A stretch of DNA of 64,000 bases, from the IMG/VR virus record IMGVR_UViG_3300027313_000002, positions 1-64,000 of that record; one strand, written 5' to 3'. Positions within the stretch are counted from its first letter, which is position 1; each line of letters opens with the position of its first letter. The notes under the pieces are model-generated. The model had not been told where the DNA came from. It was given only the letters and a program-made list of their open reading frames with translations, and ran no database searches. This document shows, piece after piece, positions 19,744 to 60,840 of the stretch. This DNA comes from a virus. The translations under genes and the position numbers were made by a program.

Positions 19744-22085
19744 TCACAGCCGGTGCCCGAGGCGGAACCCGCCGGGCAGGCGGATGCTGCCGTACCAGCC
19801 CCGGCCGTAGGTGTAGTACAGGTTCGGGTGCGCGCCGTGCGCCCGGTAGTGCCGGCGGTGGCTGCGCGCCCCGCCGGCCAGGTGCGCCACGGCCAGCACG
19901 GCCAGCACCAGGCCCGCGATCACCAGACCTCCCATGGTCAGTTACCTCCTCAGTCCATCGGCAGCGGCGGCTCGCGCCAGCGGCGCGGGCCGAAGACGTA
20001 GGCCGCCCAGGCCGCCACGGCGACCGCCGCGGCCACCGTGGCCGGGAACGGCCAGAAGACATACCCGGCGGCCAGCGCGCCGGCCACCACGGCGGGCCCG
20101 GCCGACATCACCGCCCGGTACCAGGGCGGGCGGGCCAGCCAGCGGGCGTGGTGCCCGGTCGGGGAGGCGCCCAGCCAGCCGTGGTCGGCGCAGCCGTGCG
20201 CCACGGTCAGCCCGGCGGCCAGGATCACCAGCGCCAGCGCCCACCCGGTCACGGCACGGCCTGCTTCTGCTCCGCGGAGGCCTCCCAGCAGATCCGGCAC
20301 AGCCCGGCGTCCTGCCCGGCCCGCGGGTGACGGCCGCGGAACTGCGCGGCCACCACCGCCTCGCGCTGCCCGCAGTCGGTGCACCGCTCCGGGGGCTCCG
20401 GCGGCGCCGGGCGGCGCCAGGGCAGCCTCACGGGATCACCTCGAACTCGGTCATGTCCAGCGTGCCCGGGGCGTCATCGGGGCCCAGCGGCACGCCGCGC
20501 AGCAGCGCCGGGCGATCCGGGCCCGGCAGGGCCGGGCGGGCGGGGGCCGGCCAGCGGTACGGCGGCGGGTCCGGCAGCGGCGCCGGCGAGGGAGCAGGCG
20601 GGCCGGACGGGTCCAGGCCGGCGGCGATGACCAGGTCGCGGTCCACGGGCGGCGCGCCGGGCGTGACCCGGAACCCGGGCAGCGGGGCCGGGCGGGGGAC
20701 CCGGCGGGCACCGCGGCGCAGCGCGATGACGCCCCAGGCGAGCGCGCCGGCCGCCAGCGAGGCCTCGATCACGATCCCGGCCACCAGCGCCCGGACCACC
20801 CCGGCCGCGATCACCGTCCCGGCGAAGATGACCCCGCCGCCGATCAGGGCCCACGGGAAGCACTGCGCCGCCGCGCACTGGCGCGCGCACCAGGCCGCGT
20901 AGGCGGCATATGCCGCCCTCACGAGGCCCGCCCCCGGCGGCGGCGCAGCGCGGCCAGGGCCCGCGACAGGTCCGCGGCCAGGGCCCGGCCGGACAGCTGC
21001 GCCCACGGGAAGGCGCTCACGAGGCCCGCCCCCGCTCCCGCTCGTCCAGCACGTCGGTGACGTGCGCGGGCAGGTCCATCCGGGCCACCTCGCGGCGCCA
21101 GCCGCCGCGGGACGCGCCGCGCCGGGCGCCGGAGGCCCGCCACTCCTCGTACCCGGCGGTGCCCTTGAGGTTCTCCAGGTCCAGCCGGTCGATGAAGGTG
21201 AACTGGGTCAGCCGGGCCTGGTGCCGGTCCCGGCACGGGAACACCCGCACCTCGGCGATCCGGCCGGTCCCGCCGCCGTCCCCGCGCGGCCCGCCCGGGG
21301 CCAGCGGCACCCCGGCGCAGCCGTGCCTGCGCACCTTGGCGCCCAGGCGCTCCCACAGGTTCTCGGTCTCCCCGGCGTCGAACCAGCGGGTCGGCCGGCC
21401 GCCGCGCGGGGCGTCCTCGGCCAGCAGGTAGGCCCAGGCGCCCGGGCACAGCGCGAACCGCAGCCCGCCGAACACCGCGAACAGGTCCTCCGGGAACGCC
21501 AGCGGGGCCGCGGGCGGCGCCGCGGGCCGGTTCTTGCGGCCTCTCACGTAAATCCTCCTTCACGGGCGGCGCGGGGGGTGTCATTTTTTCCCGCGCCGGG
21601 CGGGCCCGGGCGGAAGATCTCCGGCCCGCGGCGGTCCCCGGGCCCGGGTGCTAGCAGTATGGCAGTACGGGCATGCCCGTACTGATAGCAGTATGGCAGT
21701 ACGGGCATGCCCTGCTGTATATCAGTACGGTCATGCCAGCGCGCTAGCGGCCCCGGCCCAGGCAGCGCTCGCACAGGTGCCGCTCGGTCACGCCGTCGTC
21801 CCAGGTGACGCTCAGGTGCACGCCCCGGTCCCGGGACCCGCAGCGCGGGCAGGTCCGGGCCGGGCGGGCCAGCCACATGCCCAGCGCCAGCGCGCCGAGG
21901 GCCGCCGCGGCCAGCGCCAGCGCGCCGCGATGCCCGGTGCCCAGCCCGGCCGCGAGCAGGGCCAGGGCGGGCACGGCCGCCAGCGGCACGGCGCGGACCA
22001 TCCGGCGGTGCCGCCGCGCCACCGCGGCCGGGTCGTTCCTGCTGGTCATCGGGGCCTCCGGGGGGCTCGGGTACCCCTCCAGCAT
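19744..22085 (-). CDS. Run of small hypothetical and membrane genes (19744-19935, 19950-~20252, 20249-20431, 20428-~20910, 21017-21547, 21744-~22049)
   Basis: Overlapping ORFs with TM segments and CxxC pairs. Confidence 0.55.
21652..21737. repeat. Intergenic repeat cluster: two 27-bp direct repeats, a 22-bp perfect palindrome and six CAGTAYGG octamers (clt/iteron/operator-like)
   Basis: TAGCAGTATGGCAGTACGGGCATGCCC at 21652-21678 and 21686-21712; CAGTACGGGCATGCCCGTACTG at 21663-21684. Confidence 0.9.
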
Positions 22086-22110
22086 ACCACGGGGGCTTGA
22101 CTGGAGTCAA
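22081..22110 (-). promoter_or_regulatory. Promoter TTGACT-N18-TATGCT with operator 22097-22110
   Basis: Read directly; last operator copy in the window. Confidence 0.85.
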
Positions 22111-22588
22111 GGGGGGCGGGGGGCACTGAGCGGGGGGCCGGGGGCAGGGCGCAGGCCACCGCACAGCGCCGGCTGCCGGCTGACTATATATTTGCTCCGC
22201 TTCCGGCCCTGCAGGTGCCCGGGCAATCTCCCTGCAATCTCCCCCCCTTCCGCTGACCGGGGGGCGTACTGACGCTGACAGCATGACCTACGTGCACCCC
22301 CTGACGCCGGCCAGCGGGTCGCAGCTGGCCAGCCTCACCTCGGCGCCCCCGGTGTGCGGCCTCGGCTCTCCGGTCATCAGGCCGGGGGTCCAGTCGGCGC
22401 CGTTCGGATTTGAGAAGTTCACGGATGTCCTCCCTTGACGTGGCCCGCGCTGGCTGCCGCGGCGTTCACGGCCTCCCCCAGGCGGGCGATGAGATGGCCT
22501 GCGGCCTGGCCCGCGCCGTGCGGGTCCCGGGCCGCCAGGACCAGGACGGCCGCCGCGGCAGCGGCCAGGGCCAGGTGCGCGAGCGCGG

Positions 22589-24562
22589 TCACGCCTCCTC
22601 CCCGGGCTCGTCCCGCGGGTCCTCATCCTGCCCTGCCGCGGGCGGCGGCGCCTCGCAGACGGCCCAGTGCTTGACCGGCGCGTCGCCCAGGTACTGCACC
22701 ACGCCGCGGTCCTCCAGCACGGCCATGGCGCCCTCCGGGCCGTACAGCCAGGACCGGGACCGCCCGGCCCGCTGGCAGACCCCGGACTCGTTCAGGTCCC
22801 GGGCAGTCACCTCGGCCTGGCCGGCGGCGTTGCGCGGGCGGGCCGGGTCGTCACGCAGGGCCCACAGCAGGTCGCGGACCAGGGCGATGGCCTGCGCCGG
22901 GGCGGGCTTGGCCGCGGGCGGCGGCGCGCCCGCCTTATCGTACCGGCCACCCACGGGCCTGTCCGTGCTGGTAGGAGACGGGCCGGGCTTGGCCAGCAGC
23001 GCGTCCATCGTGCAGCCGTCCACCTCGCGGTCGCGGTCCTGGGCGTACTGCTGCACGTGCTCGAAGATGGCCTGCGCGCCGTCCCCCCAGGAGTACAGCC
23101 GGACCGGCAGCGCCTTGTCCGCGTCCGGGATGGTGAGCGTGTCCCACACGCTCATCCCCGGGTAGGACGCCCCCCACAGCTGCGGCCGGGCGCCCCGCTG
23201 CCGCTGGGTCTCGCTCAGCCCCAGCTCGGCCTGGCCGGCGTCGGCCACCCCGAAGCACACGTGGCCCTGCTGGGCGCGGGCTACCGTCGGGCCCTGGCTG
23301 TGGTGCACCGACTGCTGGGAGGAGTCGGCCCGGATGCCGGCCGACCGGACGTTGCGCTGCAGGGACACCCACAGGTCCTCCAGCTGCTTGCGGTCCAGCA
23401 GCGCCAGGATGTCCGGGGTCTCCTCGAAGAGGGCGTGCAGGTAGCTCAGGCCGCAGCCCCGCTCCCACTCGGTCATCTTGCGCTTCGCCAGGTAGTCGCA
23501 GCGGGCCAGCCGGGCCCGCTTGAGCGCGTACAGCAGCTCGACGGCATCCTCGGGCTCCACGGCCAGCGGCAGCGCCATCGCTGCCTCCAGCGCGCCGAGG
23601 AACTGGCGCCGCTTGGCGACGTCCGCGGCCACCACCGCGTAGTCGCGCCGGGTGACGCCCTCGGCGATCATGTTCCAGGCGTAGCCCATCGACTTGGCCG
23701 ACCCGGACTGGCCCATCACCTTGACCGAGTGCGAGGGCAGCAGGCGGTACAGGAACAGGTCGGAGTCCTGCCGCAGGCCGAGGCGGAACGGCGCATCAGC
23801 GATGCTCTCCCCGGGAGCGGACGGCCCCGGCCACGGGACGGGCCCGCGCAGCAGCACCTGCGGGTCGGTGATCTTGACGTTGCCGACCCCCGCGTCGCCC
23901 AGGTCGCTGGTCACCGTCCAGCTGCCCGGCGGGTGCCGCAGGGCGGCCTCCACCCGCTCGATGTCCTCAGCGGCCTCGCCGACCACCATGCCGTCCGGCA
24001 GCTGCAGCCCGGCCTCGGTCACCACCGCCCGCTGGCCGCCCGCCGGGGACCCGGCCCGGCGGTGCCGGACGCTGAACAGCCGGGCGCCCTGCATGCCGAC
24101 CGGCTCGGCCTTGGCCGCGAACGCCTTGGCCAGGTCCCGGTTGTCGCCCGCGCTCAGCCACAGGTCCCAGATGACGCAGGCGCACAGCCCGCCCAGGAAG
24201 TAGGCCATCGCCAGCACCCGGCCGAAGCCGAAGATCAGGAACGCGGCCAGCGCCAGGGCGGCCAACGCCGCGGTGACCGGGCCGATCAGCCGACCGACCA
24301 CGGCGGCCCGGTGCCAGCGCAGGTGCAGGTCGAAGCCGGTCACGGCGGTGCCCAGCGCCAGCACCGTCAGCACCGTCCCGGCCCGGAACCAGAACCCGCT
24401 CTCGATGAGCAGGAACAGCTTCAGCACCAGCCCGGTCAGGGTCAGCCCGATCCAGGCGCCCCAGGGCAGCACCATGTGCCAGAGCTTGATCAGGACCTCG
24501 TTCCGGCCGCTCTGGTGCTGCGCGGACGGCGTCGGCCGCCCGCTGACGGTCCGGCTAGGCAC
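22589..24562 (-). CDS. traB: TraB-like FtsK/SpoIIIE conjugative DNA translocase
   Basis: Four N-terminal TMs; PWPGPSAPGESI motif; Walker A GQSGSAKS; Walker B LHALFEE; RSAGI; C-terminal wHTH (RSRSWLY). Confidence 0.85.
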   Translation of the reverse strand: MPSRTVSGRPTPSAQHQSGRNEVLIKLWHMVLPWGAWIGLTLTGLVLKLFLLIESGFWFRAGTVLTVLALGTAVTGFDLHLRWHRAAVVGRLIGPVTAALAALALAAFLIFGFGRVLAMAYFLGGLCACVIWDLWLSAGDNRDLAKAFAAKAEPVGMQGARLFSVRHRRAGSPAGGQRAVVTEAGLQLPDGMVVGEAAEDIERVEAALRHPPGSWTVTSDLGDAGVGNVKITDPQVLLRGPVPWPGPSAPGESIADAPFRLGLRQDSDLFLYRLLPSHSVKVMGQSGSAKSMGYAWNMIAEGVTRRDYAVVAADVAKRRQFLGALEAAMALPLAVEPEDAVELLYALKRARLARCDYLAKRKMTEWERGCGLSYLHALFEETPDILALLDRKQLEDLWVSLQRNVRSAGIRADSSQQSVHHSQGPTVARAQQGHVCFGVADAGQAELGLSETQRQRGARPQLWGASYPGMSVWDTLTIPDADKALPVRLYSWGDGAQAIFEHVQQYAQDRDREVDGCTMDALLAKPGPSPTSTDRPVGGRYDKAGAPPPAAKPAPAQAIALVRDLLWALRDDPARPRNAAGQAEVTARDLNESGVCQRAGRSRSWLYGPEGAMAVLEDRGVVQYLGDAPVKHWAVCEAPPPAAGQDEDPRDEPGEEA

Positions 24563-25289
24563 GGCTCACCTCCGGCGCGTGCCCGTTGACGTGCTCGCGC
24601 AGCAGCTGGCTGGCCGACTGGCGGCTGCAGCCGAGATCGCGGGCCAGCTCGTTGCGGCCCCCGGCGGCGGCCACCCGGCGCGCCAGCTCCTCCGGCGGCA
24701 GCTTGCGCCACTCGGGAATGGCGCCCGCCCTGCCACGCGGCTTGCGCCCGGCAGGGCGGCGCTGGACCCGCCGGGGGGCGCCGGGCCCGGGTGAGGCAGG
24801 CTCCTGCTCCGGCGCGCTCCCGGCGGCGGGCTCAGGCTCCGGCTGCGCCTCCGCGGCAGCCGGGGTCTCGCTGGCCATCCGCACCAGCCACACGGTCAGC
24901 TCATAGGCGGCGACGAACGCCACCGCGGGCCAGGCGCTGATGCCCGGCCGCAGCCACACGCCCCACGAGGGGTAATCCGGCGACAGGTTGATGATGATGG
25001 TGACCGCGATGCCGGCGATCAGCACCAGCCAGGCAGGCACGGTCCGCCAGAAACTCGCGTGCTTGCGGGCCGCCGCCCAGACGGCCAGGGTGGCGGCGAC
25101 GATCAGGCCGTCCACGCTCCACGGGAACAGCCCCGCATCCCAGTGCGCCTGGCCGTACCGGATGGCCTGCTCGTACTGATGCTGGTAAGACCCGGATGCA
25201 GCGACGCCCGCGACGAACGCGGTCACCGCGCAGGCGGCGGCGACCAGCCGCCAGGACTGCTCGATGCGGAGCCAGGACGGCACCTGCAT
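24555..25289 (-). CDS. DUF2637 / Spd-like membrane protein with C-terminal HTH
   Basis: SYQHQYEQAIRYG...FPWSVDGL...ISAWPAVAFVAAYEL; RNELARDLGCSRQSA. Confidence 0.8.
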   Translation of the reverse strand: MQVPSWLRIEQSWRLVAAACAVTAFVAGVAASGSYQHQYEQAIRYGQAHWDAGLFPWSVDGLIVAATLAVWAAARKHASFWRTVPAWLVLIAGIAVTIIINLSPDYPSWGVWLRPGISAWPAVAFVAAYELTVWLVRMASETPAAAEAQPEPEPAAGSAPEQEPASPGPGAPRRVQRRPAGRKPRGRAGAIPEWRKLPPEELARRVAAAGGRNELARDLGCSRQSASQLLREHVNGHAPEVSRA

Positions 25290-25552
25290 CAGGCCACCTC
25301 CTCGGCCGGGCGCTCCGCCCACCACGCGGCGGTCACCTCGGACATGTCCCCGGGACCGCTGCGCCCGGCCGAGGCCCGCACCGCATCCAGCCAGCTGACG
25401 TAGACCGACAGCTGCCCGCCGAAGGTGCGCACCGACGGCATCCGCCCGGCGTTCGCCCACTCGCGCAGCGCATCCTCCGAGCGGCCGAGCAGCCGGGCTG
25501 CCATCGGCAGGGTGGTCAGCCGCTCCAGCCGCTCCCATCCGGTTACCGCCAT
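25289..25552 (-). CDS. Xis/AlpA-like HTH DNA-binding protein
   Basis: TLPMAARLLGRSEDALREWANAGRMPSVRTFGG. Confidence 0.8.
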   Translation of the reverse strand: MAVTGWERLERLTTLPMAARLLGRSEDALREWANAGRMPSVRTFGGQLSVYVSWLDAVRASAGRSGPGDMSEVTAAWWAERPAEEVA

Positions 25553-25698: not shown

Positions 25699-26466
25699 GT
25701 GTCTCCTCGGGCCCAGCGCACGCTGCCGCTGCACCAGCAGATTTACGACCACTACGAGCAGCTCATCACCGACGGGAACCTGCAGCCAGGCGACAAGCTG
25801 CCGTCCGTCCGCCGGACCGCCGAGGAGTGGGGCACCGGCCAGCAGGCCGCCCAGCACGCCTACGCACTGCTGCGCGCGGCCAAGCTGACCCGGACCAGCA
25901 CCGAGGGGACCTTCGTCGCGCAGCGTCGCGCCACCTACGGCCCGCAGCAGCGGGCCCGGTCGGTGCGGTTCTCCCCGGGCACCTCCACCGATGTCCGGGA
26001 CGCGGGCAGAGTCCTGATCACGCCGCCGCACCCGTGGGATTACGTCATCGCGATCCTCGGCCTGGAGCCCGACCATGAGGGCGACTTCGAGGTGATCCGG
26101 CGCGAGGAGCTGATCAGCGACGAGGGCGGACCGGTCATGCTGCTGGTCACCTGGGCCTCGCCGGGCTGGCTGCCGCGGGTGCCCGAGCTGGCCGTGGCCG
26201 ACATCCTGCCGGACCCGCGCGGCGCGGCGCACCTGATCGCGGACCGCTGGCCAGTCACGGTCGAATGGGGCGAGTACTCCGACGAGACCCGGCTGCCGAT
26301 GGACGACGGCCGCGAAATCCCGCTGCTGGAGCTGGCACCCGGTGAATACGTGGGCGGCAAGACCTGGAAGTGGGGCCACGGCGCCGGCGAGGCCGAGCAG
26401 CTGCTCGCCTACGAGGAGGCCACAGTCAAGCGGAACCGGGTCATCCGGCTGTACATCGAGCCCTAG
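25699..26466 (+). CDS. GntR (HutC/UTRA) regulator, KorA/TraR-like
   Basis: LHQQIYD...GNLQPGDKLPSVR...GTFV wHTH plus UTRA-like C-terminus; divergent from the tra operon. Confidence 0.88.
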   Translation: MSPRAQRTLPLHQQIYDHYEQLITDGNLQPGDKLPSVRRTAEEWGTGQQAAQHAYALLRAAKLTRTSTEGTFVAQRRATYGPQQRARSVRFSPGTSTDVRDAGRVLITPPHPWDYVIAILGLEPDHEGDFEVIRREELISDEGGPVMLLVTWASPGWLPRVPELAVADILPDPRGAAHLIADRWPVTVEWGEYSDETRLPMDDGREIPLLELAPGEYVGGKTWKWGHGAGEAEQLLAYEEATVKRNRVIRLYIEP

Positions 26467-28941: not shown

Positions 28942-29562
28942 ATGAGCGGATCCCTGACCGAGCTGCTGGAGGCCCGGCGCGTGACGCCGGAGGAGGTCGA
29001 GCAGGCCAGCTTCTCCAGGGTCCGCTTCGGCGGCGTCAGCGACGGGGAGGTGGCCGCGTTCCTGGACCGGGTGCACGACGAGCTGGTGGTGCTGGCCGCC
29101 GAGCGGGACGCCGCGCTGGCCGGCGCCGCGCGGGACCGGGATACCGCGGCGGCGACCGCCGGCGAGCCAGGCCCGGGCGCCATGGAGGCGGTGCGCATCC
29201 TGGCCGAGGCGCAGGCCACCGCCGCCAGGCTAGTGGCCGAGGCCCGGGCCGAGGCGGACGAGCTGACCGGCAACGCCAAGCGGCAGCGCGACCAGCTGCT
29301 CGCCGACGCCGAGGCGAAAGCCGCCGCGACCCTGAGCACCGCCGGGGCGGAGGCCGCCGCCGTGCGCGCCCAGGCGCCCGCTGAGGCCCTCGCGCGGCTG
29401 GCCCGGTGGCAGAGCATGGGGCAGAGCCTCGGCGGCCACCTGGAGGCGCTGCAGGACGAGATCACGGCGGTCCTGGACTTCTGGGGAGAGCCGCCACCGG
29501 AGCCCGCGCCCGCCCGGCCGGCCCGGCGCCGCCGCCCCGCTACGCCAGCGGATACGGCATGA
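28942..29562 (+). CDS. divIVA: DivIVA/Wag31-domain coiled-coil protein
   Basis: VTPEEVEQASFSRVRFGG.S..EVAAFLDRV N-terminal domain; AVRILAEAQATAARLVAEARAEAD coiled coil. Confidence 0.85.
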   Translation: MSGSLTELLEARRVTPEEVEQASFSRVRFGGVSDGEVAAFLDRVHDELVVLAAERDAALAGAARDRDTAAATAGEPGPGAMEAVRILAEAQATAARLVAEARAEADELTGNAKRQRDQLLADAEAKAAATLSTAGAEAAAVRAQAPAEALARLARWQSMGQSLGGHLEALQDEITAVLDFWGEPPPEPAPARPARRRRPATPADTA

Positions 29563-45384: not shown

Positions 45385-45888
45385 TCACCCCCCTCCGTGC
45401 CCGTTACCGCCGGCGCCCGGCGGCGGGCCGCCGAACTTCGTCATGAACGCCTCGAAGCTGCCCTCGGCGTTAGCCGCCTCCACGCCGCGCTCCGGATCCG
45501 CCTGGACCTTCCCGAACCGCGGGTCGTCCTCGATCCGGTCGGCCACCTTCGGCCCGCGGATGCGGTCCAGCTCGGCCTCCCGGGGATCCTGGCCGCCCAT
45601 GATGTCGAGGGCCTGGGCCATCTCGACCAGCGGGTTGCGCCCGCCGTGCCGGTCCGGGTCGACCTGGGCCTGCGCCCCGATGAACGTGCACACCGTCTTC
45701 ACCTGCCATTCGGCCAGGCGCAGCCGGGCTACGCTGTCCCGTTCCCGGCGGGCGCTGATGGCCTCCGCGATCTGCCTGAGCCGGCAGAGCGGGAGGCCGA
45801 GGATGTCAGCGTCGCGCCATCCGTACTCGGAGCTGATGAGGTCGAAGGCGGTGGCGAAGGCTCCTGCGAGGCCAGCTGCTCGGGGCCC
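45385..45888 (-). CDS. Tail assembly chaperone, second (-1) frame
   Basis: FDLISSEYGW.D..IL.LP..R motif; no own start; overlaps the first chaperone ORF in the -1 frame. Confidence 0.7.
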   Translation of the reverse strand, partial: GPRAAGLAGAFATAFDLISSEYGWRDADILGLPLCRLRQIAEAISARRERDSVARLRLAEWQVKTVCTFIGAQAQVDPDRHGGRNPLVEMAQALDIMGGQDPREAELDRIRGPKVADRIEDDPRFGKVQADPERGVEAANAEGSFEAFMTKFGGPPPGAGGNGHGGG

Positions 45889-47097: not shown

Positions 47098-47150
47098 GCC
47101 CGCGTGCCCTCCTGGGTCGGCGAGTTGCGTCAGCCTGGATAATCGGCCGG

Positions 47151-47369
47151 CTACGGGCAGCCGGGCAGTTGCAGCTGCGCAGGGTGCTGGCCGAGCGCGA
47201 ACAGCTCGGCCAGCTGCCGGTCGTCGATGACGCAGACGTCGGTCTGGACATGCCGGACGACCATCAGGACCTCCAGCGACCAGACCGCGGCGCCGCCGAG
47301 CGCGCAGCCGACGATGACGGCCGTCACGACGGCCACGGCGAAAAACCACCATGGCGGCCCGGCCCTCAG
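47151..47369 (-). CDS. Small membrane protein (possible CTG start overlapping the upstream stop)
   Basis: One long TM, two Cys; lies in the lysis-like cluster. Confidence 0.5.
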   Translation of the reverse strand: MRAGPPWWFFAVAVVTAVIVGCALGGAAVWSLEVLMVVRHVQTDVCVIDDRQLAELFALGQHPAQLQLPGCP

Positions 47370-48579: not shown

Positions 48580-49398
48580 TTAACAGCCGTCGTAGGGAGA
48601 CCAGTTGGACTGGCCGCCAGCAGCCAGGGCGTTAGCGAAGACCTGGTTCTGCTCGGCCACGCTGGCATGTCCGAAGTCCGCCGGGTTCCCGCCATACGCC
48701 GCCCAGGTGCTGGCGGCGAACTGGTACAGGCCGTAGTGCCCGGTGGCGTTCATCACCTGGGCGTTGCCGCCGGATTCGCGGGCGACCACGCACTGGCCGA
48801 ACGAGCCGCCGGGGTAAGAGCCGCCGGAATACCCGGCGGTGGCGACCTGATGCGGCTGGGAAGCCGGGGCCTGGTAGGCCGGGGCCTGGCGGGAGCCGCA
48901 GCTGACGTCCCATCCGTCGCCGTCGCCGTCGCCGCAGTAGTTCGGGTAGCCGTAGGTCACGCCCCAGACTTTCCCGGCCGGGTCGGCGGCCGGAGCGGCG
49001 GCAGCGGCCACGGCCGCGACCGCCGCGTGGCAGGCGAGGAGGATGTCCCGCCCGGCGTAGATGAGATCGGCGTCGGGGATGTGGTTGGCGGCGGCCAGGC
49101 TGGGATAGTCGCCAGCCGTGCCGCAGAACCGCCCGGAGATGCCCGAGAGCGTGTCCCCGGCCCGGATAAGGTATATGCCGGGAGCCTGGCCCGCGCGGGC
49201 GGCTGCATGGCTCTCAGCGGCTGCCAGCAGGACCATGTGACCGTCCTCCGGCAGCGCGGGCGGCACTGCCGGGCGGGCCGGGACCACCGCGGCATGCGCG
49301 GCCTCCGGCCTGGGGAAGATGGCGGCAATGGCCGCCATGACGGTGAGCACGGCCGCTATCCTGGCCGCGCGGATGAGGGTACAGGCGTGCTCCAGCAT
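48580..49398 (-). CDS. rpf: Secreted LysM + Rpf-like lytic transglycosylase
   Basis: Signal peptide; YLIRAGDTLSGI...DLIYAG (LysM); CVVARESGGN...GLYQF...TW...EQ...W. Confidence 0.88.
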   Translation of the reverse strand: MLEHACTLIRAARIAAVLTVMAAIAAIFPRPEAAHAAVVPARPAVPPALPEDGHMVLLAAAESHAAARAGQAPGIYLIRAGDTLSGISGRFCGTAGDYPSLAAANHIPDADLIYAGRDILLACHAAVAAVAAAAAPAADPAGKVWGVTYGYPNYCGDGDGDGWDVSCGSRQAPAYQAPASQPHQVATAGYSGGSYPGGSFGQCVVARESGGNAQVMNATGHYGLYQFAASTWAAYGGNPADFGHASVAEQNQVFANALAAGGQSNWSPYDGC

Positions 49399-51034: not shown

Positions 51035-53362
51035 TTACCCGCGCCTCCACCCGGCAGGCGCGGCCAGCGCGGCGATGCCGGCCTCCTCCGGCTCCCGACG
51101 GCAGCCCATGGCCAGGTCGTACACGGCCGCGCCCGGGCCGGCCACCTCGTCGCGGATACGCCGGAACAGCGCCTCGATGACCACCTGCCAGTCGCACATC
51201 AGCGGGATGGTGCGGGCGGCCAGCTCGGCCTTGCGCCGGGCCTCCTCGCGATGCGTGTAGATGTGCCAGATGACGTCCTTCAGGTGCGGCACCTGGACCC
51301 GGGCGTCATGAGCGGCCCACGGCTTCTGCTCGAAGGTCGGGGCCAGCTCGTAGCCCAGCGGGTAGGCGTAGTCGGCGTTCAGCCACTGCCGGTGGCCGCC
51401 GAAGTCGGTGGCGGCCACCGCCCCGCCCGTGGTCATGAACTCCAGCGCGGGCAGGTTCTTGCCCTCCCCCCTGGACGGCGCCAGCAGCACGTGCCCGGAG
51501 GCGTAGAAGTCCTGCAGCGTGCGGTGGTCGAACGCGTCGACGAACACCTTGATCCGCTGCTCCTCGAAGACCTTGTTCAGCTCGGGGAACAGGTCTCCCG
51601 GCAAGATGGTATGCAGCGCGAAGGTGGCGTTGTCGAAGCCGTCCGGCCATGGGCCCGGCCGCTCGAACTTCAGCTCGTTGAAGGCCTGGATGGCGGTCCA
51701 CGGGCACTTGCGGGCGCCGAGCGCGCCGTGCATGAGGAAGCCGAACCGGCCCAGGCCGTCCCAGTCCCGGGTGAGGAAGTGCCACTCCGAACTGTCGTAG
51801 CCGCCCTGCAGGACGCCGCGGCATACCCGGCGCGGGATGTAGGGCTCCAGCGCGGCCAGGCTCACCTCGTCATAGCCCAGCAGCAGGTCGAACCAGCGCA
51901 GCGCCGACGGCAGCCGGGTGCGGCCCCGGCAGTGCGGGACCAGCCCGGACACGCCCCTGCCGTCCCTGCCCGGGCCGCCGGCAAATTCCCACATCGTGTT
52001 ACCTGTGTAGAAGATGTGACCCTCATGCCGGGCCAGCCAGTTCCCGTGCTTAACCGACGGGCACCAGATCACGCCCTGGTACGTCTCTCGGGTCGGTGAC
52101 CGGGTATTGAGCACCGCCGTGTCCCGGGAAGAGAGGCGCACCGTAGCAAGGTGCGGATGCTGAGTCCTGTGCGGCCGGGACACCGGCTGGCCGGCCAGCA
52201 CGCAGGCAGCCACGAAAGCATCCAAGCGAGGCCCGCGAGCCTGCGAGAAAACCCGCTCGCTCTCGCATTCATGCCCGTCAGCCAGCAGGCTGACCTTAAT
52301 GAACAGCTCCAGCTGAGCTGGCGTAAGCGACAGCAGGAACCTCATCGACGGCACTTTGCCCGGGCAGGCGGCAAGGACCTCCTGAGACACCGGGCGAGAG
52401 ATATTGAAGATGATCATCCCGTCCGGCTTAGGTGGCGCCTCGGTCCAGGTCTGATACCCAGCCCGCTGCCCGAGAGCGCCCCGACCGGATTCACGCATGT
52501 AGCAGGTGTGGCACAGCCCGCGCGCCCGGGTGACCCGGCCGAGGCTGTCTGGCTTAGTGCTACCGCACAAGTCGCATGCCTCGGGCTTCCCGTTCGGCTG
52601 AGCCGGTCCGCACAGAGCCAGCAGCGCCGCGCGGATGCGCTGCGTCTTGGACGGGTTGACGCGCTCATTCTGCCCGATGCGGACAGACTTCCCGCGCTCC
52701 AGCCATCCCTCGGTGTAGGTCCAGGCGACCAGCTCAACGAACGCATCCGTGTACTTGGACTCTTGCGGCAGCTGAGCGCACGGCACGCTGCGGATGATCT
52801 GGTCACCCGCCTTCAAGGCCGCCGACGTCCGCCAGGCCAGGTGCTGCGCCGCGTCCCGGATGAGCCAACGGTGCGACGGGTTAGTCAGCGACTCGTGCCC
52901 GGGCGCCTTCAGGCGCACCATCTCGTGGCACGCATCGCCCGACCGGTAAACATCCCGGATGTCCTGCCATTCAGACAAGCCGGTCGCCGGATTGATCCCG
53001 AGTGCCTGGTCACTGGCCTCGATCTCCTCATGCCAGAGCCAGCCTCGCCTGGTGAAGATTTCCACGTTCTGTGATACGCACCAGGCGACCGCCACCCTGG
53101 TAGCCAGGCGCGCCTCCCTGGTGATGTACAGGTGAGCGGGATCCCAGTGATTGATCAGCAAGTCGAACGGCGGCTTCAGCTCGCGCGTGAACAGGTGCAC
53201 AAGGTCCCGGGGGATGGGCACATCGAGCCAGGTGGGCTGCGGGTACACCTCGCAGCCCCAGCGGTCCAGCCCCCGGATGAGGCCCCAGCCGTCAGTGCCG
53301 TACCCAGAGAACTCGCTAAACGGGCTCTTGACGATGACCTTCAGCGGGCGGTCAGCAGGCAC
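51035..53362 (-). CDS. GT-B (family 4-like) glycosyltransferase containing an intein
   Basis: FSGYG; HVLLAPSRGEGKNLPALEFMTTG; extein junction VAW|TMWE. Confidence 0.9.
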   Translation of the reverse strand: MPADRPLKVIVKSPFSEFSGYGTDGWGLIRGLDRWGCEVYPQPTWLDVPIPRDLVHLFTRELKPPFDLLINHWDPAHLYITREARLATRVAVAWCVSQNVEIFTRRGWLWHEEIEASDQALGINPATGLSEWQDIRDVYRSGDACHEMVRLKAPGHESLTNPSHRWLIRDAAQHLAWRTSAALKAGDQIIRSVPCAQLPQESKYTDAFVELVAWTYTEGWLERGKSVRIGQNERVNPSKTQRIRAALLALCGPAQPNGKPEACDLCGSTKPDSLGRVTRARGLCHTCYMRESGRGALGQRAGYQTWTEAPPKPDGMIIFNISRPVSQEVLAACPGKVPSMRFLLSLTPAQLELFIKVSLLADGHECESERVFSQARGPRLDAFVAACVLAGQPVSRPHRTQHPHLATVRLSSRDTAVLNTRSPTRETYQGVIWCPSVKHGNWLARHEGHIFYTGNTMWEFAGGPGRDGRGVSGLVPHCRGRTRLPSALRWFDLLLGYDEVSLAALEPYIPRRVCRGVLQGGYDSSEWHFLTRDWDGLGRFGFLMHGALGARKCPWTAIQAFNELKFERPGPWPDGFDNATFALHTILPGDLFPELNKVFEEQRIKVFVDAFDHRTLQDFYASGHVLLAPSRGEGKNLPALEFMTTGGAVAATDFGGHRQWLNADYAYPLGYELAPTFEQKPWAAHDARVQVPHLKDVIWHIYTHREEARRKAELAARTIPLMCDWQVVIEALFRRIRDEVAGPGAAVYDLAMGCRREPEEAGIAALAAPAGWRRG
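51998..53080 (-). mobile_element. Intein (361 aa) with LAGLIDADG-like blocks and an inserted zinc finger
   Basis: Starts CVSQNVEIFTRRGW, ends WLARHEGHIFYTGN followed by Thr; LVAWTYTEG and LLADG blocks; CDLC...ARGLCHTCY. Confidence 0.92.
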
Positions 53363-53398: not shown

Positions 53399-53923
53399 CT
53401 ATTCTGCCGCATCGGTCCAGCCCGCAGTGCCCACCCCGTAATACGCGGTGCCCCGCAGCAGCCCGTCGCCGTCCGGCACCGGGATGAACTGGATGTCGGT
53501 GAGCAGGTGGCAGTCGACGGTCACCAGGTCCCCCCACAGCAGGGCGTCCGGGTCCGTACGCTGCAGGCGGAACTGGGCGGCGGCGAACACGGCCAGGCCC
53601 CGGTTGGTGGTCAGCGAGGACGATTCGGTCAGGTTGCGCGAGGCATCGCGCAGCGGGTCGGTCCACACGTCCAGGCGCAGCCGCCGGAACCGCAGCGTGC
53701 CGAGCACCTCGGGCACCGACCAGCCGCCGAAGTCGGCGCACACGATGGCGGAGGCCGAGCTGCCCTCCATGGTCTTGAACACCCCGGTGTTGGTGTCGGC
53801 AAACAGCCACGGCCGCCCGGCGTTGGCCTGGTTGAGGTCGCCGGCCGGGAACGCGCCGAGCAGCGAGGTGACGTCGGGGAACCCGGCCAGGAACTTGACC
53901 GCGCCGCTCGCCACGTCGTCCAT
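53399..53923 (-). CDS. Tail terminator/completion protein
   Basis: Synteny after the head-tail genes; leaderless late promoter. Confidence 0.65.
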   Translation of the reverse strand: MDDVASGAVKFLAGFPDVTSLLGAFPAGDLNQANAGRPWLFADTNTGVFKTMEGSSASAIVCADFGGWSVPEVLGTLRFRRLRLDVWTDPLRDASRNLTESSSLTTNRGLAVFAAAQFRLQRTDPDALLWGDLVTVDCHLLTDIQFIPVPDGDGLLRGTAYYGVGTAGWTDAAE

Positions 53924-54098
53924 GCCCGCCAATATCGGGACAAGCGGCCCGGCCGGCCGGTAACGTGGGAGGCCGCTCAGAGCACCCCTCCGCTGCGCCA
54001 GGCTGCCGGCGCCGGTTAACGCCGGTCCGGGCGCGCCGAGACACTCTCCGCGAAACGGGTAGCGCCGGGCCCTGCTTCATCGGCCAGGGCCCGGCGCG

Positions 54099-55101: not shown

Positions 55102-55517
55102 CGCTCCTCCAGCGGGATTTCCGGCGGCGGCTGGACGCCCTTGGCGGCCAGGGCCGCGCTCATGGCTCCGTAATCTGTCGCCAGATTGGCGTACACCGAG
55201 TAGACGAGCGTGATGAAGATGCCCACAGTCTCCCAGAAGCTGCGATGGAAGAAGAACAGCCAGGCCACAATGGGGAAATTGATGAGCCAGTACAGCACGC
55301 CCCAGCGGTGCACGCTGTACTGGGTGTCCGGGTCAGACTCCAGCCGGGCGATCATGCTCCTGACCGGACGGTTGCGCAGCATCCGCCAGGCCACGTAGAC
55401 CAGGACCGCCCCGGCCGCGCCGAGCAGGACATAGCCCGCGTGCAGCTTGCCGTCCGCGTCGATGACCACGGCAGCTACCAGCAGGCCGAGCAGCAGGTAG
55501 CGCAGCGCAGCCATCAC
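55098..55517 (-). CDS. Four-TM membrane protein
   Basis: Hydrophobic segments; SVYAN motif. Confidence 0.65.
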   Translation of the reverse strand: MMAALRYLLLGLLVAAVVIDADGKLHAGYVLLGAAGAVLVYVAWRMLRNRPVRSMIARLESDPDTQYSVHRWGVLYWLINFPIVAWLFFFHRSFWETVGIFITLVYSVYANLATDYGAMSAALAAKGVQPPPEIPLEER

Positions 55518-55936
55518 GCCCGGAGAATCGGGTCGGTGAACCGCCGGGTCGGGATGCCGCAGCGCTTCTCGGCATAGTCGGCGCAGTGCACCGCGCCGTG
55601 CGAGCCGTGCGAGCCGTGCAGCGGGCAATCCTCCTTCTCGCACGGCCCGATGAAGGCCAGGCACGCGGTGGCACCGAGATCAGCCATGGCCTCGCTGCGC
55701 TCGAAGCCGGCCCGCGGGTTGAACCGGCCGTCCCGGTACCAGTTCCTGACCGGGTGCGGCTCGACCTGGCCGCCCAGGTCCTTCCAGATGCGCTCCAGGT
55801 CCTGGTCGCCCTTCCGGGCATGCCCGGAGACCAGGACGGCGTCCGGGGCCAGCTCGTGCGCCCGGCCGAGCACTCGGCAGGCCAGCGCCCAGTCGTTCCA
55901 GCTGCGGGAGCAGGTGATCAGGATGCGACGGGTCAC
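55514..55936 (-). CDS. SLOG-family (DUF2493/YspA-like) protein
   Basis: RILITCSRSW...LVSGHA.KGD...AGFERS..MADLGA...CLAF...G...C. Confidence 0.8.
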   Translation of the reverse strand: MTRRILITCSRSWNDWALACRVLGRAHELAPDAVLVSGHARKGDQDLERIWKDLGGQVEPHPVRNWYRDGRFNPRAGFERSEAMADLGATACLAFIGPCEKEDCPLHGSHGSHGAVHCADYAEKRCGIPTRRFTDPILRA

Positions 55937-56691: not shown

Positions 56692-57273
56692 CTAGAGACC
56701 AGGATCGGAGGGGAAGATTTGCGCGTTGATGTCGAACATCTGCCAGTCGATCTGGTCCCGGTCGCTCGGCCCGGCCATCACCATCCGCTGCTCGCGCTTG
56801 TCCCACACGATGCCCACGCCGTCGTAGCGCTCGCTGTACCGCTCGAACCCCGTGATCTGCCCGTAGAAGACGCCGTTGGCCCGGGTCCGCCTGGCCAGGA
56901 ACCGGACGGCCAGGTCGAACATGTCGACCCCGGTGCGCTCAGCGGTGACTTCCAGCGCCTGGGCGTTGCGGGCCATCTCCTGGATGGGCTTGGAGTAGCT
57001 GTAGGACCCGACCGTCTCGCTCATCAGCGGGTTGGCGAGGACCTGCTGGTAGGGCCAGCGCAGGTACAGGTAGTCGGCCATGGCCATGATGCCGGAGTTG
57101 GCCAGGGTCTGGTCGTCCGGGTTCATCGCGCCGTAGTCAGCCACGCCCAGCTCGGTCAGCGTGGTGAACATGATGGTGGCCTGCAGCAGCGCGCTGTTCA
57201 CGTACGTGGTGTAGCTGACCTCGGCCCGGCCGGTGTACTCGGCCAGCTCGGCGAGGGTGGGCAGCGGCCACAT
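56692..57273 (-). CDS. Head-tail connector/adaptor protein
   Basis: SETVGSYSYS motif; synteny. Confidence 0.8.
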   Translation of the reverse strand: MWPLPTLAELAEYTGRAEVSYTTYVNSALLQATIMFTTLTELGVADYGAMNPDDQTLANSGIMAMADYLYLRWPYQQVLANPLMSETVGSYSYSKPIQEMARNAQALEVTAERTGVDMFDLAVRFLARRTRANGVFYGQITGFERYSERYDGVGIVWDKREQRMVMAGPSDRDQIDWQMFDINAQIFPSDPGL

Positions 57274-57691
57274 ACCTGGTACATCGGCCGGGGAGGGCTG
57301 CGCGCAGCCCGGTTTCCGCCTCAGGGGGCCGGACTCGGGTCAGAGGCCACATAGCAGGGATCGGACTCCGTGATGCGGCCCTCGCCTTCAAGGCCCCGGA
57401 GGCGGGGGCGTAGAGCCACCCTCCCCGGTGAGGAGAACATCGGCCACTACGAGCGGGGCCACCATACGGTGCATGCCCGGCAGAGATGCTGAGCCCCGCC
57501 ATGGCCCGGCGCCAGGGCGCAGCTGTGCTCGCCGCGCGTCTCGGTGCACCGCCGGGTCACGGCCCGGCGCTGGGCTAGCGCGAACTCGATGTCGCGCAGC
57601 CCGTGCTCGGTGAGCCCGATCCGGTAGATCGCCGGATGCTCCCGCAGCTCCAGGGTCAGGTGGCCGCCGTGGTCGGTGACCTGGACGTCCA

Positions 57692-58030: not shown

Positions 58031-58716
58031 CGGAACGCCGGGGCGGGCACGCCGCGGGCCCGCCTCGCCTCCGCCGCGTCGGCCTGCCGCAGCGCCTCCT
58101 CGCCCGGCCCGGCGATGGTCACCGGGTTGCCGGCGTGGTCGGTGCCGGACAGCTGCTGGAAGCCGCCCTGCTCCTCGGTGTAGGAGCGGCGCCCTGGCCA
58201 CGGCCCGTGCTCGAAGAACTGCCGGCCCCACCGCTCGGCCTGCTGCGCCCGGTTCAGCAGGATCCAGCCCCGGGCCTCCTCCCAGCGCGGGTGATCCGGG
58301 CCGATCTCCAGCTCCTGGCCGCGGTACCACACCTGGCCGAACGCGGTCAGCCCGTCGTCGATGAAGTGGATGAGCACGGCCCTGCCCTCGGTCGGCTGCC
58401 AGGCCTGCGGCTGGGCCTCGAAGCGGGCCGTCTCGGCGACCGCGGCGGCATGCGCCTTATCCCGCTCGGCCAGCTCCTCCGGGCTCAGCTGCGCCGCGGG
58501 CCGCGGCCGGACCCCCTCGGCCCGGACCGCGTCCGGGGCCTGCGCGGTCATGTCCAGGCCGCAGCTCGCGCAGAACCGGGCCCCGGTCACGTTCTGGTGG
58601 CCCAGCGCGCACACCGGGCCGGGCAGGCCCGGCTCTTCCGCCGGGCCGTCCGGCACCAGCTGCCCGGCCGCGGCGGCCGGGTCGACGATAACCTGCTTTC
58701 CGCTCAGTCCTGCCAC
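58027..58716 (-). CDS. Zinc-ribbon-containing phage protein
   Basis: CALGH.N..GARFCASCG; IHFIDDGLTAFGQVWYRGQELE. Confidence 0.7.
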   Translation of the reverse strand: MAGLSGKQVIVDPAAAAGQLVPDGPAEEPGLPGPVCALGHQNVTGARFCASCGLDMTAQAPDAVRAEGVRPRPAAQLSPEELAERDKAHAAAVAETARFEAQPQAWQPTEGRAVLIHFIDDGLTAFGQVWYRGQELEIGPDHPRWEEARGWILLNRAQQAERWGRQFFEHGPWPGRRSYTEEQGGFQQLSGTDHAGNPVTIAGPGEEALRQADAAEARRARGVPAPAFR

Positions 58717-58735
58717 GCCCGGGGAATCGGCCGCC

Positions 58736-59494: not shown

Positions 59495-60700
59495 CTAGTC
59501 GATGGTGCCGCCGCCCGGGGCGTTGCCCACCGCGCCAGCCCAGTACCCGGCCGGGGCCGCGGTCGCTCCGGTGCCGATGATGCCGGTGGCCACGAGCATC
59601 TGCTCAGGCCTGGTCACAATAGGCAGAAGATGCCATTCCAGAAGGTACTGCCTGGCCGACGGATCTTTTTCCTTCCAGGTTTTCGCGTACTTTCCAGTAA
59701 ATCCATCGGGCGCTTCATCATCGGCGGTCGGGCCGATTAGCAGCTCGATAGGCCGCTGGTCGGTGTAGTTGCCCAAATACATCTGTCCATCGGGGACAAA
59801 AAAGCTGATATTGCCGAGGTCCGACTCGAAGACCTGCTCCACTGTGTTCCATACGAGCCCCATAAAGCCGGACATTATGCCCGTGCTATAAAACTCGTCC
59901 TTCATACGATCTGAGAGCATGGTCGCCGGGATATTGACCGTGGCGCCGGAGGTAGCCTGGGTCCAGGCTTCCATGAGGGCCGCCATTGTCACCGAGGTCG
60001 CGAATACTTCCTTGGCCGGGACGCGCCCGTGGATTTGCACGACCCGCTTCCAGGAGCGGACGTCCTCCAGGATGGACACCGGGTTGGCGTACGTTATCGT
60101 ACCGGTCCCGGCGTTCAGCCGCGTGCCCGCCTGGCCCAGCGTGAGCGGGTTGCTCGGCGAGCCGGTGCCCGTGCCGCCGGTCGTGTAGTAGACCAGCGAG
60201 GGGTTGTTGACCCACGGCGTGGCCGGGGTGACGAAATGCGAGGCGGGGAACTTGTAGTCCACGACCGCCTGGATGTCCGCGTAGTTGTAATTGATACCGC
60301 CGCCGAGGGCCTGCCAGCAGCTCCATTCCGCAAAATTGTCGAACCTCATATTGAGGTCATTGATCTCGCGGAGGACTGCCTGCTCGGCGTTTACCCGCGC
60401 GATTTCCCCGGGCACCCGGAGCCAGTGAAGGGTGGTCGGCTCGAACACTTTCTTCTCGCGAAGATAAATGAATGCAGCCGACTCTTGCGAGCGGCCGAGA
60501 CGGGAAATTATGTGCGCTTCCGAATTGGGGACGTTAGGCTTAGCGACCGCACGCGAGCCCTTTACCACATCCCATGTCGCGGACGGGAAAGGCCAGGGAG
60601 TCTGATCCAGCCTGTTCATGAGCACGAGCGTTTCCGGCGTGACGAACTTCTCCACGACTCCGCGCAGGACCACGGGCTCAAGGAGGCTGATGTCTGGCAT
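59495..60700 (-). CDS. Major capsid protein (lambda gpE-like family)
   Basis: 401 aa, RBS AAAGGGAG; EWSCWQAL.G...VDYK; KDPS...LP; downstream of a gpD-like gene. Confidence 0.88.
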   Translation of the reverse strand: MPDISLLEPVVLRGVVEKFVTPETLVLMNRLDQTPWPFPSATWDVVKGSRAVAKPNVPNSEAHIISRLGRSQESAAFIYLREKKVFEPTTLHWLRVPGEIARVNAEQAVLREINDLNMRFDNFAEWSCWQALGGGINYNYADIQAVVDYKFPASHFVTPATPWVNNPSLVYYTTGGTGTGSPSNPLTLGQAGTRLNAGTGTITYANPVSILEDVRSWKRVVQIHGRVPAKEVFATSVTMAALMEAWTQATSGATVNIPATMLSDRMKDEFYSTGIMSGFMGLVWNTVEQVFESDLGNISFFVPDGQMYLGNYTDQRPIELLIGPTADDEAPDGFTGKYAKTWKEKDPSARQYLLEWHLLPIVTRPEQMLVATGIIGTGATAAPAGYWAGAVGNAPGGGTID

Positions 60701-60840
60701 TTGCCGGCTCCCTTTCAGGTGCTTTCCGCTACGGAGGCAGCGGCACCTGCCCGGTGCCCGGCCTGCGCCGCCCCCCCGGGGGAGCCACCTGGCTGGCCTG
60801 GCCGCATGATCGCGGTTACCCGGTCTTATCGACCCGGGCA

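Follow-up and report, generated by a model that had tools for sequence, protein, structure and literature searches.

Candidate UUA-triggered bypass sites and a TraB-like transfer cassette in a family of large uncultured soil phages

Can a phage spread as naked DNA through a mycelium while tying the synthesis of its virion proteins to the state of its host? The question is raised by a 64,000-nucleotide (nt) stretch of viral DNA (IMG/VR record IMGVR_UViG_3300027313_000002, positions 1 to 64,000; hereafter the window), in which genes of Streptomyces-type conjugation lie beside phage tail and capsid genes, two of the tail genes being interrupted at TTA triplets. An earlier, sequence-only reading of the window had described a development-coupled phage that conjugates in vegetative mycelium by means of TraB and builds virions on bldA and WhiG cues. 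The features on which that proposal was built are largely real, and TraB, DivIVA, Rpf and the gaps share a clade of relatives, whereas the role of WhiG, the polarity of the TTA switch and plasmid-like conjugation were not upheld. The reading favoured here, to which we give slightly less than an even chance, is that of a large actinophage with TraB-based DNA spread between compartments and with virion proteins gated by an unread UUA.

The window comprises the initial 64 kb of one 77,292-bp viral contig (G000), which has no terminal repeats and a CheckV completeness of 53%. Its GC content is 71%, and nearly all of its genes lie on the minus strand. Relatives of its major capsid protein (MCP) were found at 68 loci in IMG/VR, 12 of which are contigs of 124–152 kb; two of these have a 127-bp terminal overlap (circular assembly), and the true genome size is therefore about 150 kb. 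By this measure, the window amounts to roughly half of one genome in a family of large (~150 kb), uncultured soil siphoviruses. G000 and the 12 large relatives constitute the 13 family genomes compared below, and near-identical phage DNA occurs in at least 24 soil metagenome runs. The sole cultured relative, Microbacterium phage Magritte (OR553905, 133 kb), shares 46–53% identity in the MCP, portal and major tail protein. It surfaced through the MCP search of 50,697 phage records alone; a 27-kb megablast and tblastn searches with TraB and with a 589-aa open reading frame (ORF) returned zero matches among the same records. Structural genes are named from Magritte's curated annotation.

TTA-led gaps in virion genes

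Frame interruptions were located by homology-based junction finding; a generic scan for TTA followed by a frame change returned mostly gene ends and performed no better than control triplets. In the tape measure gene of the window (37753–45374, minus strand; ATG at 45374, encoding MAYEGPEYWYVIYK first), a 5-nt insert at 45328–45332 follows ...VIYK in the arrangement AAG|TT|AAG, with TTA at 45332–45330, and the frame then resumes with AIADFGDLMRDA. The same gene is uninterrupted in G001, G004, G005 and the outgroups, which read MAYEGPEYWYVIYKA(I/V)(A/G)DFGDLMRDA. In addition to this G000 gap (gap B, AAG-TT-AAG), the tape measure gene contains gap A, TGG-TTA(7-8 nt)-TGG after ...EYW, in G002, G007 and G008, and gap C, GGT-TTA(4-7 nt)-GGT/C after ...KAxG, in G002, G003, G007 and G008.

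In a minor tail gene (35438–36351, minus strand; ATG at 36351, MTTPAFYY), the N-terminus is severed from the body of the protein by gap D, TAY-TT-AGC, which is present in G000 (as TAT-TT-AGC), G001 and G008. The G000 TTA at 36327–36325 is in the zero frame and a stop codon follows five codons later, such that a +2 shift is needed; G002, G003, G004, G005, G006 and G007 read through this point as (W/A)(R/Y)(Y/F)YSN. The portal gene, uninterrupted on the present contig (68975–70576, beyond the window), has two gaps in relatives: P1, ACC-TTAG-ACC in G002 and ACC-TTAA-GCC in G008, and P2, GGC-TTAACCT-GGT in G008 (portal gaps at G008:C1:149640-149880; in G002, at the 5' end of the gene). In this essential gene, the gaps come after 24 and about 60 codons. 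No gap was found in the terminase gene, which is intact in 12 of 12 relatives.

Six distinct gap sites in three virion genes thus carry inserts of 2–14 nt, and all six open with TTA directly after the take-off codon. At five of them, the landing codon is identical or synonymous to the take-off codon or differs from it by one mismatch (AAG/AAG, TGG/TGG, GGT/GGT or GGC, ACC/ACC with GCC in G008, and GGC/GGT). Skipping any of the gaps restores the sequence read by uninterrupted relatives, and the peptides on the 5' side are conserved in those relatives, even in outgroups (MAYEGPEYWYVIYKA.., WRYYSN and GGMGVT-TQGYGQEGY). Contigs of four other soil runs show both G000 sites unchanged and free of indels, the tape-measure site being covered by contigs from two runs. 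The TTA gaps are confined to the clade that carries TraB, DivIVA and Rpf.

TTA is the rarest codon in these genomes, as expected because their GC content is about 70%; it is used 0.3–0.5 times per 1000 codons and occurs in 7–10% of genes. A tRNA-Leu(UAA) gene is missing from all 10 tRNA-bearing genomes, which encode 31–37 tRNAs each. On the present contig, an array of about 35 tRNA genes extends from 72.3 to 77.2 kb, up to the contig end, and 36 tRNAs are encoded in all. The Leu anticodons are CAG, GAG and CAA only, a set shared by the relatives; absent from the 36 are Tyr, Trp and Leu-UAA, plus four other U34 anticodons (Leu-UAG, Val-UAC, Thr-UGU and Ala-UGC).

The interruptions might instead be tolerated defects or gene-start artefacts, with the proteins made from downstream starts and TTA present by coincidence. 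If the tape-measure TTA of G000 is decoded, translation arrives at a TGA overlapping an ATG at 45303 (TGATG), where reinitiation could yield a near-full-length protein without bypass. Also, at 36379 the minor-tail frame opens with an in-frame GTG, and G004 and G005 are TraB-positive yet lack gaps at the sites examined in the tape measure, minor tail and portal genes. Coincidence, however, fits poorly with six of six independent gaps starting at so rare a codon, with the related landing codons at five of them, with the conservation of the upstream peptides as far as the outgroups and with the position of the portal gaps inside an essential gene. Moreover, the same type of site has partial experimental support in phage phiHau3 (PMC10732093). 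An origin as artefacts or defects is, in our estimation, distinctly unlikely.

For the phiHau3 terminase gene, UUA-triggered bypass was put forward by Smith et al. (2013), and Antonov et al. (2023) gave it partial experimental support (PMC10732093). In the phiHau3 model, bypass takes place when charged tRNA-Leu(UAA) is lacking, which lets the phage sense the growth stage of its host (PMC10732093). Evidence for bypass had previously come from three terminase genes of 100 surveyed, those of phiHau3, StrepC.1 and a Streptomyces catenulae prophage, and the authors considered that little is known of the process (PMC10732093). Like those cases, the gaps described here are short, UUA-led non-coding blocks in genes essential for virion production, with uninterrupted counterparts in relatives. 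They differ in lying in tape measure, minor tail and portal genes rather than in the terminase gene, in length (2–14 versus 7–10 nt), in number (six sites, in an unrelated, uncultured and tRNA-rich family) and in having plainly matched landing codons at most sites. The bypass in T4 gene 60 involves a stop codon in the A site, a gap of 50 nt and a nascent-peptide signal. The present sites resemble it in combining a take-off codon, an A-site codon that would be unreadable and a matched landing codon, but it is a rare sense codon that occupies the A site, and the stretches to be skipped are very short. The TTA-led gaps are candidate UUA-triggered bypass sites of the phiHau3 type, and it is plausible that they link virion protein synthesis to tRNA-Leu(UAA) (bldA-type) status.

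The polarity of such a link would be opposite to that of the classic bldA gate, because a protein in which the TTA is decoded ends prematurely. Tail synthesis would then belong to times of tRNA scarcity rather than follow late developmental cues, and the idea that bldA-dependent decoding switches virion output on is not supported. What stands of the proposed TTA gates in tail genes is the pair of frame interruptions in G000 (45328–45332 and 36325–36327), which are conserved or paralleled in relatives; in-frame TTA codons do not act as gates on the present evidence. The TTA taken as codon 71 of ORF 46459–47352 was rejected as a gate, since it sits in GCCGATTA upstream of the real start codon, ATG 47097. 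In-frame TTA codons elsewhere were likewise rejected, the tested positions not being shared by most relatives.

At the other end of the tape measure gene, codon 2490 is a TTA, shared with G008; of four aligned relatives, three have their stop codon at this position. At 37834–37836 (minus strand), TTATG stands in place of the stop-start overlap of the relatives, and the tape-measure ORF is extended by 26 codons, overlapping the next gene. A C-terminal frame break in a protein of about 1070 aa (G003 ~77860, G007 ~46290 and G002 ~63880) was ambiguous and was not counted, TTA being present only in G003 (GCC-TTAC-GCA). The protein is uninterrupted in G008, and the break in G002, G003 and G007 may mark the edge of a gene or a site of frameshifting.

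A TraB, SpdB-like and GntR transfer cassette

The second element is a cassette located between the tail genes and the early genes. Its central gene (22589–24562, minus strand) encodes a TraB-like, FtsK-type double-stranded DNA (dsDNA) translocase of 657 aa. The protein matches the NCBIfam model plasmid_TraB (NF041214) with an E-value of 3.9e-45 and 154.5 bits, far under the equivalog cut-off of 800, as well as phrog_24831; its atlas feature and fold neighbours are Actinomycetota TraB/FtsK clusters, and a Pfam FtsK_SpoIIIE match was not obtained for it. An alignment of the G000 protein with four phage homologues and three plasmid TraBs shows N-terminal transmembrane helices, a Walker A motif GQSGSAKS, a Walker B motif LFEE and a C-terminal winged helix-turn-helix (wHTH), GRSRSWLY. 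The A-K variant of Walker A is common to the G000 protein and the homologues from Thermobispora and Nonomuraea plasmids. By these similarities, the phage TraB is homologous to plasmid TraB, but belongs to a distant subfamily.

Upstream lies a gene for a DUF2637 (SpdB2-like) membrane protein (24555–25538, minus strand; PF10935, 40 bits against a cut-off of 22.8; phrog_733) with four transmembrane helices and a C-terminal HTH; its true start is probably Met84, near 25289. A divergent gene (25699–26466, plus strand) encodes a GntR-family regulator of the TraR/KorA-like type (PF00392, 37 bits). In a Streptomyces traB plasmid, GntR is divergent from a small ORF, DUF2637, traA and traB, and the position of DUF2637 matches that in the phage. 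The TraB match, the DUF2637 protein, the divergent GntR gene and this plasmid-like gene order together bear out the earlier assignment of TraB/Spd transfer genes. Downstream of traB, three small ORFs (113, 44 and 57 aa; 21744–22592, minus strand; called by third-position GC content, GC3) matched no family in profile searches. The 113-aa product has a transmembrane segment and a C-terminal CxxC...CxxC, and all three are possible Spd-type accessory proteins.

The cassette resembles the TraR-Spd-TraB systems of pSVH1, pIJ101 and integrative and conjugative elements of actinomycetes (AICEs) in its divergent GntR regulator, its DUF2637/SpdB-type protein and a TraB with transmembrane helices, FtsK-like ATPase and wHTH (PMC4447253). 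In contrast to those systems, it sits in a virion-encoding genome of about 150 kb with no integrase or ParB detected, its TraB is 27–38% identical to plasmid TraBs, and traA and a recognisable array of 8-bp clt repeats are lacking. Rep was not seen in the adjacent region of the window, no search having been aimed at it. In the absence of traR, traB has a toxic effect (a Kil-Kor pair), and SpdB2 is pore-forming and promotes access to the cell wall (PMC4447253). Thoma et al. suggested that SpdB2 homologues in actinophages aid the spread of phage DNA through cross-walls (PMC4447253), and FtsK-like genes have been reported in Streptomyces phages (PMC13587820).

TraB is present in seven of the 13 family genomes, that is, in six of the 12 large relatives, with 34–42% identity; it was found by searching whole IMG/VR records, single-protein peptide patterns having given nothing. 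TraB and GntR are syntenic in G001, G005, G007 and G008. GntR is 42–45% identical and the pair 34–45%, compared with 60–80% for structural proteins. The cassette is, on this comparative evidence, old, vertically inherited and kept intact. The top bacterial TraB matches are from Nonomuraea (38%), Thermobispora (35%) and Streptomyces (28–30%), with Amycolatopsis also represented; all are mycelial genera. A chromosomal Nonomuraea locus contains TraB, DUF2637 and GntR with zero phage genes. On the circular 145-kb Thermobispora bispora plasmid NZ_CP039125, the TraB homologue ranking second in closeness is accompanied by GntR, thyX and ParA, and there is no homologue of the phage capsid.

The gap downstream of the traB operon contains three direct repeats of about 34 nt (21649–21742) with perfect 16-nt inverted arms, CAGTACGGGCATGCCC / GGGCATGCCCGTACTG, a candidate clt or operator. 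Other relatives have different, AT-rich palindrome clusters downstream of their own TraB. The sequence GACCCGGA is present in 20 copies versus 4.5 ± 2.2 in dinucleotide shuffles (4.4-fold), but the copies are dispersed on both strands without strand bias; codon bias could account for the enrichment, and it was set aside as evidence for clt. GACCCGGA is putatively the TRS of pSVH1; it was not found in PMC4447253.

A different function has to be considered, in which the cassette is an AICE-derived module for host takeover or competition, acting through Kil-type arrest, permeabilisation of membrane and wall or exclusion of rivals, and not through transfer of phage DNA. The toxicity of unrestrained traB and the pores and wall access attributed to SpdB2 (PMC4447253) would suit such a module, as would the AICE- or plasmid-like loci in which the nearest bacterial homologues reside in Nonomuraea and Thermobispora. 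Consistent with this, no clear 8-bp clt array was found, and the Arg that follows the conserved Q of an S-x-Q-R stretch is replaced by S, T or K in the phage TraBs, so that ATPase function is not certain. However, the DNA-recognition wHTH, Walker A and Walker B are kept across 34–42% divergence, the whole three-gene arrangement is kept rather than merely its toxic part, and clusters of repeats or palindromes follow TraB in several genomes. The takeover function is accordingly judged rather unlikely, and DNA transfer is retained as the preferred role.

Late-gene starts, wall-related genes and neighbouring features

Many structural genes begin exactly at the motif c-CGAT-T-(A/G)-n-ccgg-GC-(A/G)TG. 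In the window, it occurs on the minus strand as CGAT-N10-ATG at 53921–53938 (start of a putative tail terminator gene), CGAT-N9-GTG at 55515–55531 and at 58714–58730 (gene starts) and CGAT-N9-ATG at 57271–57287 (start of the gene 56692–57273). CGAT-N9-ATG/GTG is strand-specific in every family genome, including the TraB-negative ones, with 11–16 sites on the coding strand versus 0–3 on the opposite strand; the motif also occurs in Magritte, which was isolated on Microbacterium foliorum.

A sequence logo of 63 sites from seven genomes contains no information upstream of position -1 (-50 to -2); C occupies -1 at 40 of the 63 sites and G occupies -2 at 27, CGA being fixed by the choice of sites. 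At the major tail gene, GCCGATTA at 47140–47147 lies about 37 nt upstream of ATG 47097, which is preceded by a Shine-Dalgarno (SD) sequence, and one Magritte copy is arranged alike. This spacing favours a promoter -10 element, with mRNAs that would be mostly leaderless.

The published WhiG consensus has a conserved -35 element, T(A/C)AA (WhiG2) or CTCA (WhiG1), at N16-17 (bioRxiv 10.64898/2026.01.14.699351). Among 126 motif sites, T(A/C)AA at N16 was found at none and CTCA at two. The exact WhiG -10, GCCGATAA, is not enriched either (29 matches versus 22.5 ± 4.9 expected, with zero perfect matches). The motif has the GCCGA with invariant CGA that characterises the WhiG -10, though CGA was set by selection. 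It resembles WhiG/sigma28 promoters in the CGA core, often preceded by CC, as in GCCGATAA, and its spacing to the start codon suits a leaderless -10, but a -35 is missing and its 3' half is TTA/G..GGC, not TAA. Late promoters consisting of a -10 element only exist, for example, in T4. The lack of a -35 brings the motif closer to such phage late promoters.

Candidate readers are encoded by the phages themselves. A single ORF of the window (7711–8802, minus strand) encodes an extracytoplasmic function (ECF)-type sigma factor (regions 2 and 4) joined in one chain to an anti-sigma domain of the zf-HC2 type, with a long Pro/Ala-rich tail. Homologues of this fusion occur in the four TraB-positive relatives tested and not in G006 or G012. 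Sigma70_r2 exceeds its cut-off in eight of the 13 genomes, and Sigma70_r2-like ORFs are found in 11; relatives have a second, weakly matching one, for example at G001:96777-96863. Given the missing WhiG -35 and these sigma ORFs, a -10-only promoter read by a phage-encoded or general factor is the better reading, and WhiG as the reader of the late motif is unsupported. The late promoters noticed in the window are thus real and family-wide as a CGAT-N9-start motif, but their attribution to WhiG is not supported. Nor does the motif follow the transfer genes: TraB and the TTA gaps occur in the same clade, whereas the motif extends to TraB-negative phages.

Two further genes had suggested a filamentous, sporulating host. 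A 206-aa protein (28942–29562, encoded on the opposite, plus strand, with its own SD) has the N-terminal motif RFGGVSDGEVAAFLD and a DivIVA domain with a coiled coil. It scores 27.1 bits with TIGR03544 (cut-off 22) and 27.4 with Pfam (cut-off 28); in the genome search, summing neighbouring in-frame matches gave 29.1 bits, above the Pfam cut-off. The atlas fold comparison gave TM 0.59 to DivIVA clusters, and DivIVA is present in six of the 13 genomes. The homology is borne out at the domain level by the TIGR03544 match, and a role in tip growth is putative.

A gene at 48580–49398 (minus strand) encodes a secreted protein with LysM (25 bits) and an Rpf-like lytic transglycosylase domain (PF06737, 40 bits against a cut-off of 27). 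It has a signal or signal-arrest-release (SAR)-like N-terminus, the Glu of RESGG and flanking Cys residues, and its GLYQF..STW stretch also recalls soluble lytic transglycosylase (SLT)-type enzymes. The Rpf-like domain exceeds its cut-off in five of the 13 genomes, all five TraB-positive, and carriers of DivIVA or Rpf are nearly all within the TraB clade. In mycobacteriophage TM4, the tape measure protein contains an Rpf-like peptidoglycan hydrolase motif (PMC1796659), and a phage-borne hydrolase of this family has an ordinary explanation in wall penetration or lysis. The motif lies inside the TM4 tape measure protein, whereas here LysM-Rpf is a separate secreted protein. The secreted Rpf domain with its catalytic residues is confirmed; by analogy with TM4, it may serve in penetrating or lysing the wall, which is no less probable than a function in germination.

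The structural genes follow the order of Magritte, including a glycosyltransferase gene. On the minus strand lie the genes for the MCP (59495–60886; phrog_29; 49% identical to that of Magritte), a 775-aa glycosyltransferase-like protein within the structural module (51035–53362; phrog_2170; Magritte gp31), the major tail protein (46459–47097, with SD AGGAGG before ATG 47097; phrog_36442; 53% identical), the tail assembly chaperone (45729–46403; phrog_34893/33493; Magritte gp34) and a homologue of the minor tail protein gp37 (36977–37834). The scaffold gene, likewise named via Magritte, is at 63843–64952. A large minor tail or fibre protein of 1689 aa (29978–35047, minus strand) is 33–50% identical in six of six relatives tested and is placed after the minor tail genes, as in Magritte. 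Magritte carries two copies of GCCGATATCCCTGA; it differs from the present family in a GC content of 64.6% (41-kb stretch examined), normal SD sites for most genes, the absence of TraB and a unicellular host.

Between the capsid gene and a small ORF on the scaffold side (62685–63095) lies the 589-aa ORF (60907–62676, minus strand; GC3 0.93), which matches Pfam animal haem peroxidase with 30 bits (cut-off 25). It has no homologue in six relatives tested or in the phage collection, and so resembles an insertion. In the early region, a YdjM-family (LexA-regulated membrane hydrolase-like) protein (18005–19186, minus strand), kept in three relatives, has TTA as its codon 36. About 14 copies of a 16-bp palindrome, CTTGACTnnAGTCAAG, lie between 1000 and 22150 of the window, nearly all in intergenic gaps of the early region and some in tandem (for example, at 989–1004, 2658–2701, 4137–4180, 13078–13121, 13914–13929, 19537–19567 and 22096–22111). 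The palindrome includes the -35-like hexamer TTGACT and is probably an operator or early-promoter element.

Host, lifestyle and implications

In a profile search of the family genomes, neither integrases of the tyrosine and serine types nor ParB were detected in the TraB clade, whose G000 contig is about half complete. MCP relatives were absent from 72,556 plasmids, and the MCP profile matched a sole metagenome-assembled contig among 185,579 species genomes. These results bear on the suggestion of a pZL12-like phage that maintains itself and conjugates in vegetative mycelium as a plasmid would, and that expresses its late virion genes through WhiG and bldA-read TTA codons. Plasmid-phages with tra or developmental genes do exist in mycelial actinomycetes (pZL12/phiZL12 in Streptomyces and PhiNon1 in Nonomuraea), where phage structural genes and plasmid transfer or developmental genes share one replicon; the TraB/Spd/GntR cassette is real, and the CCGAT core of the late motif resembles the GCCGA core of the WhiG -10. 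However, pZL12 (compared by description only) and PhiNon1 are resident plasmids or integrating prophages of 59–90 kb, whereas neither integrase nor ParB and no occurrence in plasmids or isolate genomes was detected here. A pZL12-like residence, and with it the conjugative, plasmid-like state proposed earlier, is therefore unsupported, although half of G000 is missing. The near-absence of WhiG -35 elements, the lack of GCCGATAA enrichment, the presence of the motif in TraB-negative relatives and Magritte, and the truncation of tail proteins when TTA is read all argue in the same direction. This scenario is very improbable.

The TraR-SpdB-TraB set, the UUA gaps, Actinomycetota-specific genes and the GC content of 71% make a mycelial high-GC actinomycete the most likely host, and the gene content suggests an actinomycete with limiting UUA decoding. 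An SsgA profile search was uninformative, with no match anywhere and the positive controls likewise silent. The host might otherwise be a non-mycelial actinobacterium, with TraB, DivIVA and Rpf as generic accessory genes and UUA unassigned or very poorly read. Microbacterium is the host of the nearest cultured relative, unicellular actinobacteria, too, have members of the DivIVA and Rpf families (a Corynebacterium control was positive for both), and WhiG homologues are widespread outside sporulating genera. On the other hand, the arrangement of TraR, SpdB and TraB, complete here, is the one found in Streptomyces-type conjugation, the top bacterial TraB matches are all from mycelial genera, and Magritte is a TraB-negative member of a distant branch (46–49% MCP identity). 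A non-mycelial host is thus considered quite unlikely.

In the favoured model of an actinophage with inter-compartment DNA spread and UUA-gated virion proteins, TraB and Spd in an infected hyphal compartment would pump phage dsDNA through cross-walls into neighbouring compartments. The GntR regulator would restrain the toxic translocase, as TraR does TraB on plasmids. Ribosomes stalling at an unread UUA might hop or shift over the gap to produce full-length virion proteins. By the phiHau3 model, this would take a shortage of charged tRNA-Leu(UAA) of the kind expected in young vegetative hyphae, whereas an abundant tRNA would allow UUA to be decoded and virion proteins to be truncated. The CGAT-N9-start motif would serve as a -10-only late promoter of mostly leaderless mRNAs, with a factor of the phage or a general factor as a more probable reader than WhiG. 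DivIVA and LysM-Rpf would be accessory genes of the clade with putative roles in cell wall or polarity. An extension, in which the phage chooses between two routes of spread by sensing tRNA-Leu(UAA), making virions when it is scarce and moving as naked dsDNA via TraR-SpdB-TraB when it rises at development, a passage from cell to cell that needs no particles, seems to us unlikely.

Several observations weigh against the favoured model. In addition to the possible reinitiation at 45303, the gap-free TraB-positive genomes, the altered S-x-Q-R stretch, the missing clt array and the dispersed GACCCGGA copies described above, the 2-nt minor-tail gap D has no well-matched landing codon. The nearest cultured relative, Magritte, infects a unicellular Microbacterium, though it lacks TraB. 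Also, TraB, DivIVA and Rpf co-occur within one clade of related phages, and their association is therefore not phylogenetically independent.

Every component of the model has a published precedent (pZL12, PhiNon1, phiHau3 and TM4; for FtsK-like genes, PMC13587820). The main value of the present analysis lies in six new, well-controlled candidate bypass sites and in a complete transfer cassette within a clade in which no lysogeny genes were detected. As the sites lie in three further virion genes and come with natural uninterrupted controls and take-off/landing pairs, the bypass idea can be tested directly with small reporters. The family-wide -10-only motif at putatively leaderless starts offers a handle on late transcription in high-GC phages. 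With the cassette conserved in phages of about 150 kb, movement of phage DNA from one hyphal compartment to the next without virions becomes a possibility open to test; if it is real, such spread would change the view of plaque formation, of soil phage ecology and of gene flow in antibiotic-producing actinomycetes.

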